24,000 nt of DNA, taken from positions 41,163 through 65,162 of the forward strand of contig NZ_CP006270.1 in assembly GCF_000737575.1 (NCBI RefSeq), given 5' to 3'. The notes under the pieces were generated by a model. That model was not told the DNA's origin. It was given only the letters and a program-made list of their open reading frames with translations, and ran no database searches. Every line of letters begins with the position of its first letter. Positions within the stretch are counted from its first letter, which is position 1. The position numbers were made by a program, and so were the translations under genes. Origin of the DNA: Synechococcus sp. KORDI-49. Its GTDB lineage: Bacteria > Cyanobacteriota > Cyanobacteriia > PCC-6307 > Cyanobiaceae. This document shows positions 16,389 to 23,449 of the stretch, piece by piece.

Positions 16389-17894
16389 TTAGGCGAGGGT
16401 GTCCGCCAGGCGAAGGGCCAGCGCGATCACCGTGAGGCCCGGTCCGACGCTCGGACAGCTCGGGAAGACACTCGCATCGGCGAGGTAGAGGTTGTCAAGC
16501 TCATGGCACTTGCCGAAGCCATCGACCACGGAGCTCGAGGGATCCTCACCCATGCGGCAGGAACCGCAGCCATAACCCACAACGCTCATCGGTGCTCCAC
16601 CGCGGGCATGGGTGGGTGCCTTCAACACCACCTTGGTCACCGGATCCTTCTCCACCTCCTTCAGGGTGTCGATCCAGCGGTAGACCAAGCGGTCATGCGC
16701 TTCCCGGTTGTTGTGGATGTAATTGATCCTGATCTGGTCGTTGTGCAGCCAGATCTTGTTATGGGGATCCGGCATCACCTCCGTCATCGCCCACCAGGCG
16801 ACGGAGCGGGACGCCAGTCGCTCAAGGCCGAAATCGGGGATCATTTTGCTCACCAGGGAAAGCACTGGTGGTGACTCGGCAAACAACGCGTCCTGCAGAA
16901 CGCCTCCGGCTGTCTGGATGTGGCCAAGCGGGAAGCTGACGTTCTTGTCACCCCAGTAGTAGTCGTTGATGCCCAGAGAGCGCCCGTATCTGCCGCTGTT
17001 GCGTTCCGTGGCCAGCTGCAGGATCGAGGTGAGCTGAAGATTCATCAGATTGCGGCCCACCTGATCGGAGCCGTTGCTGATGCCTTTGGGGTGGTGCGAG
17101 TTCGCCGAACGCAGCAGGATCACCGGGGTGTTCACGGCCCCGGCCGCCAGCACCACGACATCAGAGCGGAACAGCCAGGTGTCGCCATCCAGCTCCGCCT
17201 CCACGGCCTTCACCTCACTGCCGCTGGGGTTCACATGCAGTCGCAGCACCCTGGCGTTGTCGCGGATGGTGAGCCGGTCTGGATCTCCGGCTTCAAGGCC
17301 GAACAGCTGGGAATCGCCGCTCGGGTCGTCCCGATCTTCGGACCAGCTGATCGGAATGTCGTACGGCTGGCATCCCTGGCGTTGCAGCGCGGCACGCAGG
17401 GGTTCGAGGAACGGCTCCACCGGCTTGGGCATGGCCACGTAATCACCGTTGCGGCCCGGCTCGGTGGGGTCCACCCCCGCCTTGCCGTGCACCCGGTACA
17501 ACTGCTCCGCCTGCTCGTAGTACGACGCCAGTTCGCCGTAGTCGAATGGCCAGGCCGGCGAGATCCCCTCCTGAAGAGGAACTTCGCCGAAGTCCTGCTC
17601 GCGCATGCGCTCGAGCACAGCTCCCCAGATCTTGGTGTTGCCGCCGCGGGCGTAGGTGGTCTGGGGCGCGAAGGGATCGCCGTCCGGCCCGAACCAGCGT
17701 TCGTTCTTGGGGTGGTAGCGGTCCTTGCGGAACAGATCCACGTCGGCGACGTTCTGGTCCTCGAGAGCCATGGCCCCGCCGCGCTCCAGCACCAGCACGG
17801 ATTTGCCCTTGCGGCTGAGGGCACCGGCCAGGGTGCCGCCACCGGCTCCGCTGCCGATGACGATGACGTCGTAATGGCGGTCGTCGATGATCAT
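16389..17894 (-). CDS. GMC-family FAD-dependent oxidoreductase (501 aa)
   Basis: N-terminal 'YDVIVIGSGAGGGTLAGALSRKGKSVLVLERGG' (FAD ADP-binding fold), mid 'VVVLAAGAVNTPVILLRS', C-terminal 'LYLADASVFPSCPSVGPGLTVIALALRLADTL' (GMC_oxred_C). The start lies 4 nt after the ctaE stop. Confidence 0.88.
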   Translation of the reverse strand: MIIDDRHYDVIVIGSGAGGGTLAGALSRKGKSVLVLERGGAMALEDQNVADVDLFRKDRYHPKNERWFGPDGDPFAPQTTYARGGNTKIWGAVLERMREQDFGEVPLQEGISPAWPFDYGELASYYEQAEQLYRVHGKAGVDPTEPGRNGDYVAMPKPVEPFLEPLRAALQRQGCQPYDIPISWSEDRDDPSGDSQLFGLEAGDPDRLTIRDNARVLRLHVNPSGSEVKAVEAELDGDTWLFRSDVVVLAAGAVNTPVILLRSANSHHPKGISNGSDQVGRNLMNLQLTSILQLATERNSGRYGRSLGINDYYWGDKNVSFPLGHIQTAGGVLQDALFAESPPVLSLVSKMIPDFGLERLASRSVAWWAMTEVMPDPHNKIWLHNDQIRINYIHNNREAHDRLVYRWIDTLKEVEKDPVTKVVLKAPTHARGGAPMSVVGYGCGSCRMGEDPSSSVVDGFGKCHELDNLYLADASVFPSCPSVGPGLTVIALALRLADTLA

Positions 17895-17898
17895 GGGA

Positions 17899-18495
17899 TT
17901 ACTGCCAGACGTAGATGAGGAGGAAGAGGATGATCCAGATCACATCGACGAAGTGCCAGAACAGGCTCACCGAAGCGACGCCCATTTCGCCCTTGTCGTA
18001 ATTCCCCGGACGAAAGGAACGCGCCAGCATCAGGCCCATCAGCAGGATGCCGGTGATCACGTGCAGACCGTGAAAGCCGGTGAGCAGATAAAACATCCCG
18101 CCGAACACACCGCTGCTGAGGCTGAAGGTGAGCTCCGACCATTCGACGTACTGCCCGTAGACGAAGTACGAGCCCATGGCCATGGTGAGCAGCCACACCG
18201 CCCGGAAGCCCCAGAGGTTGCGCTGATGCAGGTAGCGCTCAGCGAAGTAGGCAACAAAGCTGGAGCTCACCAGCACCACGGTGTTGATCAGTGGCATGCG
18301 CACCTCCAACCCCGCGACACCATCCGGGAGCCATTGGGGGGCCGTGAGCTTGAGCACCGCGTAGCCGGCGAAGAAGGCCAGGAAGATCACGCTCTCGGAG
18401 CAGAGGAAGATCACGAAACCGGTCATGTTGTGACCGTCGTGCTTCACATGCCCGGGGGTGTGATTCAGCTGCAGATCGGGGTTGACGCTGGTCAT
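17899..18495 (-). CDS. ctaE: heme-copper oxidase subunit III (198 aa)
   Basis: 'GFVIFLCSESVIFLAFFAGY...FGGMFYLLTGFHGLHVITGILLM...SVSLFWHFVDVIWIILFLLIYVW' is the typical COX3 sequence. The start lies 4 nt after the ctaD stop. Confidence 0.93.
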   Translation of the reverse strand: MTSVNPDLQLNHTPGHVKHDGHNMTGFVIFLCSESVIFLAFFAGYAVLKLTAPQWLPDGVAGLEVRMPLINTVVLVSSSFVAYFAERYLHQRNLWGFRAVWLLTMAMGSYFVYGQYVEWSELTFSLSSGVFGGMFYLLTGFHGLHVITGILLMGLMLARSFRPGNYDKGEMGVASVSLFWHFVDVIWIILFLLIYVWQ

Positions 18496-18499
18496 CGGG

Positions 18500-20188
<1,689 letters not shown>

Positions 20189-20196
20189 GGCGCGTC

Positions 20197-21132
20197 TCAG
20201 GCGTCGTGGGGGATGGAGGGATCGCCGGGGTCGTTCACCATCGGAGCCGGTGCGGGTGGCACCGTTGCCCAGCCCTTGTCACCGCGGGCGATGCGGCGGT
20301 CATACAGCGGGCGGCCTGGATCGAGTCCGGGCTGCAGAGGCTGCTGGGCTGTTGTTTTCAGCCAAGCGCTGAAGGCCTCCTCCGATTCGACGATCACGTC
20401 GGTCTGGTTCTGCGAGAAGTACGCGCCGCTGAACATGGCGTCGCGCAGCCGGAAGCGGCCTTCTTTGGTTGGCGTGAGGCTGTAGGAAATGATGCTTCCG
20501 GGGATGATGTCCTGCTTCAGACGGAAGGCCGGAACGAAGAAGCTGTGCAGCACGTCTTCCGAGATCAGCCGGAAATTGACCCGTTGATCAATCGGAAGAT
20601 GCAGTTCTGAACTGCGCACACCATTGGGGTAGATGAATTCCCAGCTCCACTGGCGGGCGATCACATCGATCGGTCCCACATCCGCCATGGGATCGGCTTC
20701 CATCAGTGCGGTCGGATCGGTGCCGATGACGTATTTGTGCTTCGGACCGAGGGTCTGAAGCTTCATGTTCACGTTCATCGTGTAGGTGGCGATCACAAAG
20801 ACCGTCACCAGCGGAATGATCGTCCAGATGATTTCCAGCTTGGTGTTGCCTTCGATCGGAGCACCGTCGCTTTCGTCGTACTTGCCGGCCCGGTTGAACA
20901 GCAGCACCCAGCCCATCACTCCGGTGCAGCCGAAGAAGATGAAGGAGCCGATACCGGTTTCAAGCGCGAACAGATCGTCGACGTAGGACGCTGCACTGGA
21001 TGCCTGCGGCGGGAACCAGCTGTACGACCAGGTCGCCATCAGTTTGGCGATCACCAGGTTGATCGCCACGGCGATCGTGATGCCCACGATGGCGCCGATG
21101 TTCGGGCTTTTCTTGGGGGCAGTGGTGGTCAT
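20197..21132 (-). CDS. ctaC: heme-copper oxidase subunit II lacking the CuA centre (ARTO/quinol-oxidase-type CtaC), 311 aa
   Basis: COX2 fold: two N-terminal TMs, 'ARQWSWEFIYPNG' and 'SEDVLHSFFVPAFRLKQDIIPG'. Where the CuA pattern V-x-H-x(34)-C-x(3)-C-x(3)-H-x(2)-M is expected, the sequence reads V-L-H196-x(34)-D231-x(3)-S235-x(3)-F239-x(2)-N242. Confidence 0.9.
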   Translation of the reverse strand: MTTTAPKKSPNIGAIVGITIAVAINLVIAKLMATWSYSWFPPQASSAASYVDDLFALETGIGSFIFFGCTGVMGWVLLFNRAGKYDESDGAPIEGNTKLEIIWTIIPLVTVFVIATYTMNVNMKLQTLGPKHKYVIGTDPTALMEADPMADVGPIDVIARQWSWEFIYPNGVRSSELHLPIDQRVNFRLISEDVLHSFFVPAFRLKQDIIPGSIISYSLTPTKEGRFRLRDAMFSGAYFSQNQTDVIVESEEAFSAWLKTTAQQPLQPGLDPGRPLYDRRIARGDKGWATVPPAPAPMVNDPGDPSIPHDA

Positions 21133-21749
21133 GGCAGCACCTCCTTCAGATCGGCACCGGCGGCGAGCAGCTGATCCGCGGTGATGTGCACGCCGAAATC
21201 ACTGGCCAGCCAGGCGCCGAGACTGCCGTGCAGACCCATGACCATCAGCATCGAGGCCCCGCAGAACAGGTACAGCCAGGTCACCTGGCGTCCCAGATCC
21301 CTGCGCCAGACGAAGCGCTGGTAGCCGCGCCAGACGGTCATGGCGACGATCACCAGAAGAATGGCGACCCCCCCGATGGCATGCCACAGCATGGTGTCGA
21401 TGGCGGTCTGGCCGAGGATGCTGCGGATGCCGGGCAGCGGCACCGCCAGCAGCATTTCGTAGAAACCGGCGGCCACCGTGAAGAAGGTGATGCCGCTGCA
21501 GGCCACCAGGTTGTACCAGCCCACATCGTGGAAACCGCTGCGGGTCACCGGCAGGGCCAGGAAGCGGAACAGCCGCTTCTCCAGCGGATAGAAGGCACCG
21601 GCGAAGTCGAAGGCGATTCCGATCGCAAACAGCCCGATGGTCAGATGAACCAGATTCGGGTGCAGTGGAATCGCGTAGGGAAGATCATTGGCACCGAGAG
21701 AGTCGGCGATTTCGTTGATCGGCGATGGGATGGCGGCGAGCAGGGTCAT
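21129..21749 (-). CDS. DUF2231-like polytopic membrane protein B (206 aa)
   Basis: From the internal ATG 21749 ('MTLLAAIPSPINE...'), which overlaps the upstream stop (ATGA). Its own stop overlaps the ctaC ATG (ATGA). It has 4-5 TM helices and conserved His motifs 'LHPNLVHLTIG', 'MLWHAIGG' and 'MGLHGSLG'. Confidence 0.7.
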   Translation of the reverse strand: MTLLAAIPSPINEIADSLGANDLPYAIPLHPNLVHLTIGLFAIGIAFDFAGAFYPLEKRLFRFLALPVTRSGFHDVGWYNLVACSGITFFTVAAGFYEMLLAVPLPGIRSILGQTAIDTMLWHAIGGVAILLVIVAMTVWRGYQRFVWRRDLGRQVTWLYLFCGASMLMVMGLHGSLGAWLASDFGVHITADQLLAAGADLKEVLP

Positions 21750-22246
21750 GACACCACTCCCTGGCGGATCGCTTCCACCACCGGCACGGTGTGCAATCCG
21801 TAGACCCACACCAGTTTGTCGCCGAGATACACCTGGACGAACACCAGACCGGCCAGCACGAGATCAAGAGCCAGAAAGCCCTTCGGCAGGACAGTGGGAT
21901 CCTTCTGGCGAGCCACGTAGCGCCATCCGGTGAGCAGAGCCAGCACACCGGCAAGGGACCAGCCGATGGTGCTGTGGACATTGAGGATGTCTCGCGAGGC
22001 CCCGTAGGGATTGGCGAGGCCGGCTTCGATCTGTCCGAAGATGATGGCAACGAAGATCGCTACTGTGGCGACGAGCAGATTCCAGAAGCTCACTTCAAAG
22101 AGGTTCTTCTTTCCGGTCACCACCCCGATCACGTCGAAGACGACCGTGATCAGTGCCATGGAGATCACGAAGTGGACGACGATCGGATGAATGACGTCGA
22201 GCCAGGGGAGATTTTTATCGTTGAGCGCAGGTAGAAGATCGAGCAT
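21746..22246 (-). CDS. DUF2231-like polytopic membrane protein A (166 aa from ATG 22246; 172 aa from GTG 22264)
   Basis: 'MLDLLPALNDKNLPWLDVIHPIVVHFVISMALI...NVHSTIGWSL...YGLHTVP' has four TM helices and carries the same His motif set as protein B (HPxxVH, HxxIG, GLH). It is the first gene of the oxidase block. Confidence 0.7.
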   Translation of the reverse strand: MLDLLPALNDKNLPWLDVIHPIVVHFVISMALITVVFDVIGVVTGKKNLFEVSFWNLLVATVAIFVAIIFGQIEAGLANPYGASRDILNVHSTIGWSLAGVLALLTGWRYVARQKDPTVLPKGFLALDLVLAGLVFVQVYLGDKLVWVYGLHTVPVVEAIRQGVVS

Positions 22247-22339
22247 CGGCAAGCCGAGAGGCACGCTTCCAAAGCATGGACATCGTTTTCGGGACGGTCA
22301 TCCCTGAATGTGGAAATACAACTGGCCTGGTTGTCTGAC

Positions 22340-23449
22340 TCACCTGAGGGAGTGATCGGCGCTACGGCGCGTCGTGCGCCAGTAGATGACCGCCTGCGTG
22401 ATGATCAGAATCATCACGATCGGCATCACCAGGCAGAGAATCGCCAGCCGGTATTCATCAGACCATTCCGACAACTGGGTTCTGGGAAGAACGTTGTCGG
22501 TGATGTACAGCACATAGAGGCCGAGCAGCAGCCCCCCTTCCAGACGGCTGATCTGACCTCGGGTCCAGAAGATCGGCAGGCAGGCCAGGCTGGTGAGCAG
22601 CATCACCGGAAGGTCTTCGCTGATCAGCTCCGGGCTCACGTCCAGGCCGCGCCCTGCGGCCATCAGGGCTCCGCCGCCCAGCACCATCATCAGATTGAGC
22701 AGGCAGCTGCCCACCACGTTGCCGATCGCCAGATCGGTGCGCCCCCGCAACGCCGCCACCAGGGAGGTGATCAGCTCCGGCATCGAGGTGCCCGCCGAGA
22801 CAATCGTGAGTCCGATCACGGCTTCACTGACGCCGAGCAGTGTGGCCGCTGTGGTGGCTCCGCCCACCAGCACCTTCGATCCAATCGTCAGCACGACGAT
22901 GCCGGCGAGCAGCTTCAGAACCGCCACCTGCCAGCCACCACTGGCCGCATCCGCATCGATCTCCGGTTCCGCCCCTTCGGTGGCATCCGGTTCCTCCCTG
23001 GCCGTGCGGATCTCCCAGATGGTGTTGATCACAAGGCCCAGCAGCAGGGCGATGCCGGCCTGCCAGGTCAACCGTCCTGCAGAGGCCATGCCCCAGACCG
23101 CTGCGGAGATGGCGATCATCAGCGGAACATCCCGACGCACCAGTCGGCTTTCAACGCGCAGCGGCAACACCACGGCGCTGCTGCCCAGCACCACCATCAC
23201 ATTGAAGATGTTGCTGCCCACCGCGTTGCTCACCGCCAGGGCATCAGCGCCCTGCAGCACTGAATTGATGCTCACGAACAGTTCGGGAGCGCTGGTGCCC
23301 AGAGCCACCACGGTCAGGCCGATCACCAGCTGTGGGATGCCGAAGATCACCGCCAGGGCGACGGCCCCCTGCACGAATAGTTCGCCGCCACCGAACAGCA
23401 GGGCGATACCGATCAGCACTTCCAGTGACGCCTGCAGGAATTCCGGCAT
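22340..23449 (-). CDS. CaCA-family cation/Ca2+ antiporter (YrbG/NCKX-like), 369 aa
   Basis: Two alpha-repeats, 'GLTVVALGTSAPELFVSI' and 'GLTIVSAGTSMPELITSL', each followed by 'GN(A/V)VGSN/C'. About 10 TM helices with a central acidic loop (EEPDATEGAEPEIDADA). Confidence 0.9.
   Translation of the reverse strand: MPEFLQASLEVLIGIALLFGGGELFVQGAVALAVIFGIPQLVIGLTVVALGTSAPELFVSINSVLQGADALAVSNAVGSNIFNVMVVLGSSAVVLPLRVESRLVRRDVPLMIAISAAVWGMASAGRLTWQAGIALLLGLVINTIWEIRTAREEPDATEGAEPEIDADAASGGWQVAVLKLLAGIVVLTIGSKVLVGGATTAATLLGVSEAVIGLTIVSAGTSMPELITSLVAALRGRTDLAIGNVVGSCLLNLMMVLGGGALMAAGRGLDVSPELISEDLPVMLLTSLACLPIFWTRGQISRLEGGLLLGLYVLYITDNVLPRTQLSEWSDEYRLAILCLVMPIVMILIITQAVIYWRTTRRSADHSLR

Follow-up and report, generated by a model that had tools for sequence, protein, structure and literature searches.

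How does a terminal oxidase receive its electrons when its core subunits carry neither a CuA center nor the known quinol site? The question is raised by a stretch of 24,000 nucleotides from Synechococcus sp. KORDI-49 (contig NZ_CP006270.1, positions 41,163 to 65,162; hereafter the window), in which the map of open reading frames (ORFs) and the Pfam matches place five closely packed genes on the minus strand, in the order DUF2231-A, DUF2231-B, ctaCII, ctaDII, and ctaEII. The last three code for subunits II, I, and III of an ARTO (alternative respiratory terminal oxidase) of type 1, as a CuA-less subunit II stands beside an A-family subunit I with intact heme and CuB ligands. The first two (hereafter A and B) code for membrane proteins of the family DUF2231. 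The A–B pair is genuine and conserved and accompanies ARTO as a dedicated partner, and it may be the place where electrons enter the enzyme. The electron supply of ARTO is a longstanding question of cyanobacterial bioenergetics, and the enzyme is essential for heterocyst function. Two uncharacterized membrane proteins that are its only constant extra components, and that have co-diverged with it, make this question directly testable; resolving their role would also provide the first functional assignment for DUF2231, which is a large family found across bacteria. An earlier note on the window, made from its letters alone, had suggested that A and B could be heme-binding proteins that substitute for the missing CuA route. 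Its account of the linkage, the family, the His conserved in orthologs, and the absent electron entry stands; its di-heme mechanism is not supported.

The DUF2231 pair and the oxidase it accompanies

Among 301 sampled genomes of the phylum, DUF2231 is present in 116, frequently as a tandem of a short and a long gene. The loci of 20 such tandem pairs were fetched (the primary loci), together with those of 15 further ARTO-like ctaC genes that are mostly second copies in their genomes. The A–B pair adjoins a CuA-less ctaC in 31 of these 35 cyanobacterial loci. The ctaC gene lies directly 3′ of the pair in 17 of the 20 primary loci, followed by ctaD and ctaE where the contig permits, and the second-type ctaC genes have their own A–B pair upstream in 14 of 15 cases. 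The overlap between A and B is kept in 17/20 loci. The primary exceptions (3/20) all belong to one genus, with a Synechocystis-like genome in which the ARTO genes are dispersed.

Wherever an ARTO-type CtaC was found in the sample (E of 1e-45 or lower), the genome had two or more matches to DUF2231 (76/76), and this number was four to seven in genomes with two or three CtaC of this type. In three genomes of the window's own family that lack DUF2231, the canonical CtaC is the only one. The window's genome (complete, 2.59 Mb) has exactly two DUF2231 genes, both in this operon, and its canonical cox locus, which lies elsewhere and includes the second subunit-I gene, is devoid of them. In five genomes of the class, two or more DUF2231 matches were accompanied by no CtaC match at this threshold; one of these genomes carries the operon (L006), and therefore the CtaC search misses some. 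The co-occurrence of DUF2231 pairs with CuA-less oxidases, which the earlier note had put forward as a test, is strongly positive across cyanobacteria.

Maximum-likelihood trees of A, B, CtaC, and CtaD were built from 30 loci, which are linked genes of related genomes. The four trees contain the same 13-row clade of second-type operons (support of 98/96 for A, 100/99 for B, 95/99 for CtaC, and 100/100 for CtaD) and also agree on smaller groups. Since the same clade recurs in the four trees, each oxidase paralog has kept its own pair since an old whole-operon duplication. The four genes were passed on and duplicated together as one unit. Linkage and trees show co-inheritance, not physical interaction.

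The ATGA overlaps of stop and start codons that the earlier note had pointed out are both present in the window: the stop of A (21748-21746) overlaps with the ATG of B (21749-21747), and the stop of B (21131-21129) with the ATG of ctaC (21132-21130). A and B are translationally coupled to each other and to the ctaCII-DII-EII (ARTO) operon.

The cox3 operon of Anabaena sp. PCC 7120, which encodes Qox, a type-1 ARTO, reads alr2729-alr2730-coxB3-coxA3-coxC3; an NtcA-bound promoter precedes alr2729, and alr2729 and alr2730 are listed as hypothetical genes co-regulated with coxB3 (PMC6616624, PMC3898017, PMC4390870). This is the same A-B-ctaC-ctaD-ctaE order as in 17 of the 20 sampled loci, including larger (5–8 Mb) genomes of other families, and gene order makes alr2729 and alr2730 candidate orthologs of A and B. 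In contrast with Anabaena cox3, the genes of the window operon either overlap by 4 bases or are separated by a few bases at every junction, and a gene for a GMC oxidoreductase comes next. The linkage of the pair to ARTO is already in the literature and DUF2231 is already catalogued. In the literature searched, no function has been published for alr2729 or alr2730, and the term "DUF2231" was met in an unrelated context only.

The core enzyme itself is unusual at both places where electrons might enter. CtaCII has RDAMFSGAYF in place of CAELCGPYHGGM in the canonical CtaCI of the same genome, and D, S, and F stand for the Cys, Cys, and His of CuA both in the window and in each of the 33 linked CtaC. 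The alignment with CtaCI and the 33 ARTO-type CtaC bears out the earlier claim that this ctaC lacks CuA. The usual model for the presumed nature of ARTO is the E. coli bo3 oxidase (CyoABCD), which is also a heme-copper oxidase with a CuA-less subunit II. When CtaDII and 30 ARTO orthologs are aligned to E. coli CyoB, the six heme and CuB His and the cross-link Tyr (Y288) are invariant, whereas the quinol-site residues R71, D75, H98, and Q101 of bo3 give way to V/I, L/F, V/L, and G/A both in the window and in 30/30 orthologs. The bo3 operon, for its part, has no DUF2231 partner. By these alignments, the three core subunits of ARTO have neither CuA nor the known quinol site. The absence of both strengthens the premise that something else feeds electrons in, and the absence of the bo3 quinol-site residues from subunit I, as read from sequence, is a new argument for a missing electron entry.

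Family, fold, and the histidine cluster

Both proteins match PF09990 (DUF2231) far above the gathering score of 26.4 bits, with 129.1 bits for A and 124.4 bits for B, each in one full-length stretch, and match no other Pfam family. They share 27% identity (E of 5e-8), and the comparison of their profiles with hhalign gives a probability of 99.4%. Family membership and paralogy were both proposed by the earlier note and are upheld by these figures. The closest named relatives of A are those of Synechococcus CC9605 and KORDI-52. A and B have the hallmarks of DUF2231: four transmembrane (TM) helices, an HPxxVH motif where TM1 begins, a His close to the beginning of TM3, and conserved Gly. Relative to the family at large, the ARTO-linked proteins have two further invariant residues, a His (the fourth) that follows TM4 and a Glu that closes TM2, and B differs from the other DUF2231 proteins by an additional fifth His and a cytoplasmic insertion.

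Conservation among orthologs is strict. In 35 orthologs of each protein, the invariant residues of A are H20, H25, H91, H152, D17, E74, Q138, and Y149, and those of B are H30, H35, H123, H174, H188, and E98; the Glu at the end of TM2 is E74 in A and E98 in B. Hence, the claim of four conserved His holds within the orthologs (four in A, five in B) and fails for the family as a whole, where only three positions are kept: among 100 diverse DUF2231 members, and in the numbering of A, H20 is found in 98/100, H25 in 95/100, and H91 in 94/100. The Pro of HPxxVH (P21) is likewise present in 94–98/100 of these and in both proteins. The fourth position, that of GLH, is a His in 4/100. The three motifs quoted in the earlier note occur in both sequences as written, and HPxxVH and the TM3 His motif are indeed shared. 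The GLH motifs are not homologous: the YGLH of A (H152) aligns with FGVH in B (H188), and the MGLH of B (H174) is the extra His found only in B. H20 and H25 lie on one helix, five residues apart, and the family consensus ahead of TM3 is rich in His, Glu, and Met.

The AlphaFold2 (AF2) model of A (pLDDT of 90.8) has helices at 16-44, 47-77, 82-115, and 122-148 followed by a short C-terminal helix, and that of B (pLDDT of 86.9) has four long helices and, as an insertion between the first two, a cytoplasmic helix. Lys and Arg are abundant in loops 1-2 and 3-4 (1.9 and 4.2 per loop in A, 3.0 and 4.6 in B) and scarce in the N-terminus, loop 2-3, and C-terminus (0.1–1.5). By the positive-inside rule, both termini of A and B are predicted to be on the periplasmic or lumenal side. 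The conserved His stand at the start of TM1, at the start of TM3, and at the end of TM4 or just after it, no more than about 10 residues from the outer ends of the helices, and because of these positions they fall on one, outer, face of the membrane. There they are accompanied by D17, E74, and Y149 in A and by E98 in B, on the face poor in Lys and Arg. The His are thus not spread inside the membrane, as had been supposed, but clustered in the periplasmic third of the bundle, according to both the AF2 models and the Lys/Arg counts.

These positions bear directly on the model of the earlier note, in which A and B are each a quinol-oxidizing cytochrome b with two hemes held at two bis-His sites by four intramembrane His. 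The four-helix bundle, the conserved His, and the conserved Gly on TM2–TM4 are in keeping with it, and A and B resemble Ni_hydr_CYTB, cytochrome b561, DUF4079, and the heme-binding four-helix halves of CtaA/COX15 in being small helical bundles with His on alternate helices. They differ from di-heme cytochromes b in lacking the two-layer His pattern. As the conserved His are all in the outer third of the bundle, there are no two-layer heme sites and no place for an inner heme; only three His are family-wide, two of these (H20 and H25) are on the same helix, and the fourth His of A is past TM4. Pairs of His at two depths, in such cytochromes typically 13–14 residues apart on a helix, are absent from A; H174 and H188, which are 14 residues apart, provide such a spacing in B only. 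In addition, the cluster is surrounded by acidic residues.

Homology searches agree. No homology to the cytochrome b families PF01292, PF03188, and PF13301 is detectable by Pfam, hhalign, PDB sequence, or fold. The match of A to PF01292 (Ni_hydr_CYTB) has an E of 0.018 and 15 bits, for a cut-off of 30.1 bits; sub-threshold matches to this family reach 1.3e-5 in 2/109 relatives, and COX15-CtaA is likewise sub-threshold. Comparison by hhalign with cyanobacterial CtaA gives a nonsignificant probability of 25%, with H25 and H91 falling on His of CtaA. The families nearest to A and B outside DUF2231 by language-model features are DUF4079 and cytochrome b561, with scores of 0.57–0.66; neighbors outside DUF2231 taken together score 0.53–0.66, and all of these are leads only. 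Homology to DUF4079 was rejected, with hhalign probabilities of 0.5–1% for a control of 99.4% between A and B. A profile search of the PDB sequences with A and B returned no match, and a Foldseek search of the PDB with their models returned generic helical bundles only (best E of 0.16 for A and 0.79 for B, above 0.1 throughout). Dcytb, cytochrome b561, STEAP, and oxidase subunit III are among these bundles, at nonsignificant TM scores of about 0.5. Three family-wide His in one layer, a misaligned motif, and no cytochrome b homology speak against two b-hemes per protein; a single heme per protomer, or a copper center, would be compatible with the arrangement.

Electron entry, copper loading, and other roles

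The reading that we tentatively favor is that A and B are dedicated subunits of ARTO whose metal center on the outer face serves as the electron entry. The two proteins would most likely form a heterodimer that associates with the CuA-less enzyme as extra subunits. Their 4–5 His and Glu on the periplasmic or lumenal face would hold a redox-active metal cofactor, either copper or at most one heme b per protomer, which would take electrons from plastoquinol or from a periplasmic donor and hand them to the low-spin heme of CtaDII. This reading is favored because the pair is specific to the oxidase that lacks both entries, is kept with each duplicate, and is coupled at the head of the operon. Several points weigh on the other side. 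The cofactor of A and B and their role in electron transfer are inferred. Neither protein significantly matches any solved heme, quinone, or copper protein by fold or sequence. The pair is unlinked from the ARTO genes in Synechocystis-like genomes. The nearest non-cyanobacterial relatives are found in contexts of copper and heavy-metal homeostasis, not of respiration, which fits metal handling or loading at least equally well. To our knowledge, no heme-copper oxidase has been described in which electrons enter through a mononuclear metal site embedded in the membrane. The predicted complex of A, B, and CtaCII scored 0.00, which counts neither for nor against.

A bolder version of this proposal, about which we are more doubtful, is that A–B represents a novel type of heme-copper oxidase subunit. 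In it, a His/Glu redox metal gate would replace both CuA and the bo3 site and possibly reduce external Fe(III) or Cu(II), and DUF2231 would be a small membrane redox or metal module for periplasmic acceptors.

The main rival to electron entry is that A and B are copper-handling factors rather than working subunits. By analogy with Cox11 or Bacillus CtaG, the His/Glu cluster on the outer face would bind copper and supply it to CuB in CtaDII while the enzyme is being assembled. This account is uncertain in its own right, and almost as likely as electron entry. It builds on the likeness to the oxidase copper-insertion factors Cox11/CtaG_Cox11, Bacillus Caa3_CtaG, Sco, and PCuAC, which are also membrane or membrane-anchored proteins encoded by oxidase-linked genes and with metal ligands on the outer face. 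There is no sequence relationship with these factors, and A and B differ from them in being associated exclusively with ARTO and not with the canonical enzyme.

The distant relatives provide its best support. Nine of the nearest non-cyanobacterial DUF2231 relatives were examined for fusions and neighbors, and seven are fused to copper or heavy-metal proteins or adjoin them. Four of the nine are fused to an HMBD or YHS metal-binding domain, one of these being beside a CopA-type ATPase with cupredoxin and another beside an OEP gene. Three that are not fused stand beside metal genes, namely a CusB/OEP efflux pair, a YHS protein together with an LTXXQ metal-resistance protein, and an HMA protein. 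Further relatives carry a tail rich in His, Asp, and Glu or a CpxP-like domain with a poly-His end. By the predicted topology, these appendages would be periplasmic and beside the His cluster. The His/Glu/Met-rich consensus before TM3 also fits copper handling, and the family context points to a metal ion, probably copper, over porphyrin. A search for fusion architectures with the DUF2231 region of a 462-aa relative gave nine matches, none of them with a redox domain. The motif CxxCH is absent from the longer (fusion-type) relatives, its sole instance being in a 131-aa sequence (P0361). Finally, Cox11 (PF04442), Sco (PF02630), Caa3_CtaG (PF09678), and PCuAC (PF04314) have no match anywhere in the window's genome (99.98% complete), so that the role of copper insertion is vacant. 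The distribution of the pair, on the other hand, weighs against a copper factor. The canonical oxidase of the same genome, with both CuA and CuB, has no such pair, and genomes without ARTO keep that oxidase without the pair. Every duplicated ARTO operon retains a pair of its own that co-diverges with it, something for which a generic chaperone would have no need, and the copper need of ARTO is lower, not higher, than that of the canonical enzyme.

An outward metal reductase is an unlikely alternative of a different kind, in which Fe(III) or Cu(II) is the substrate at the outer-face site and electrons leave ARTO through A–B. It would explain the involvement of ARTO in reductive iron uptake. ARTO is reported from about 85% of the genomes of marine Synechococcus and from Prochlorococcus of low-iron regions; it has been linked to Fe(III) reduction (ctaDII/EII mutants) and to the low-iron niches of marine picocyanobacteria (bioRxiv 10.1101/2022.08.17.504260). 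The metal contexts of the family and the His/Glu cluster on the outer face are also in line with such a role. Nevertheless, nothing points to it directly, the pair is just as well conserved in ARTO operons of the heterocyst type, which serve to consume oxygen (PMC6616624), and the entry of electrons into the enzyme is left unexplained.

It is about as improbable that A and B are passive structural subunits, similar to subunit IV, with a structural ion or no cofactor in the His cluster. Tight operon linkage and co-divergence fit such subunits, as does the nonsignificant fold likeness (TM score of about 0.5) to the four-helix part of subunit III. However, 4–5 His and a Glu are invariant over 35 orthologs of each protein and three His are kept in 94–98/100 members of a very diverse family, which argues for ligand binding, and passive subunits would leave the enzyme without an electron entry. 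The di-heme cytochrome b of the earlier note, given the position of its His and the outcome of the homology searches, is the least probable account.

Layout of the window and other DUF2231 loci

The coordinates of the operon and its neighbors are given in Table 1. The span of 21129-22264 given earlier for A and B is right in its lower end, and both ORFs are on the minus strand; its upper end is a GTG at 22264 that would give a protein of 172 aa. Orthologs and the recorded protein place the start of A at the ATG at 22246, and B starts at the ATG at 21749 and not at the GTG at 21809.

Table 1. Genes and intergenic region in and around the ARTO operon (positions within the window)
Feature	Position	Strand	Remarks
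Na+/Ca2+ antiporter gene	22340-23449	-	Same strand; end 93 bases upstream of DUF2231-A
Intergenic stretch, Na/Ca antiporter gene to DUF2231-A	22247-22339	-	ORF map; presumed operon promoter region
DUF2231-A	21746-22246	-	166 aa; Pfam 129 bits; recorded protein 166 aa
DUF2231-B	21129-21749	-	206 aa; Pfam 124 bits; paralog of A
ctaCII (oxidase subunit II)	20197-21132	-	Pfam COX2 and COX2_TM; without CuA cysteines or second His ligand
ctaDII (subunit I)	18500-20188	-	Pfam COX1, 512 bits
ctaEII (subunit III)	17899-18495	-	Pfam COX3; NCBIfam
GMC-family FAD oxidoreductase gene	16389-17894	-	PF05199, PF00732

A promoter scan of the region before A found no match to the sigma-70 consensus. Contigs of four marine metatranscriptomes span A and B with few mismatches, and one of them crosses the A/B junction. 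At 21498-22500, a contig of 3.1 kb starts inside B, passes across A and the intergenic stretch, and continues beyond this segment into the region of the antiporter gene; in it, read-through and DNA carry-over cannot be told apart. As carry-over of DNA is possible, these contigs are weak support for the transcription of A and B in the sea.

The gene for the GMC oxidoreductase begins 4 bases past the stop of ctaEII and probably shares the ARTO operon. Its counterparts in L024 (same family) and L011 (another family), with identities of 81% and 48%, respectively, also lie 3′ of ctaEII, and in L038 a GMC-like fragment lies between A and B. The protein could be a dehydrogenase that feeds this oxidase. 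The genome has two heme-copper oxidases, and the delivery of copper to either is unexplained by the known factors.

DUF2231 genes also occur outside the ARTO operons. A third cyanobacterial subfamily (L040–L044, for example L042:3472-4011) consists of single genes with Pfam E-values of about 1e-41 to 1e-45, too far from A and B for detection by tblastn. These genes are not beside oxidase genes; their neighbors include a hemerythrin-domain protein, GST, DUF2809, and a DAO-type FAD oxidoreductase. In some large genomes (G095, G217, and G243), a copy of this subfamily is 11–13 kb from the ARTO operon. Among the non-photosynthetic relatives of cyanobacteria the gene contexts of DUF2231 are uninformative; one of these genomes (G070; L088:3570-7656, plus strand) has a divergent DUF2231 gene, then a typical one, then a 920-aa protein without Pfam match.

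The remaining observations concern the oxidase genes. Both subunit-I proteins of the genome (the one of the window and that of L003) have an Ala in place of the proton-channel Glu (E286 in E. coli CyoB) within the motif YSHPAV, which suggests an alternative D-channel of the Tyr-Ser type in both. In L020:4598-6646 (genome G147), the match to ARTO ctaD is split near residue 314 by roughly 2 kb of other DNA; an intron, intein, or mobile element could account for this. In L018:2639-5368 (plus strand; genome G143, of another family), ARTO ctaC and ctaD form a single open frame of 909 aa with no stop between them, which may reflect either a natural gene fusion joining subunits II and I or an error of the assembly.

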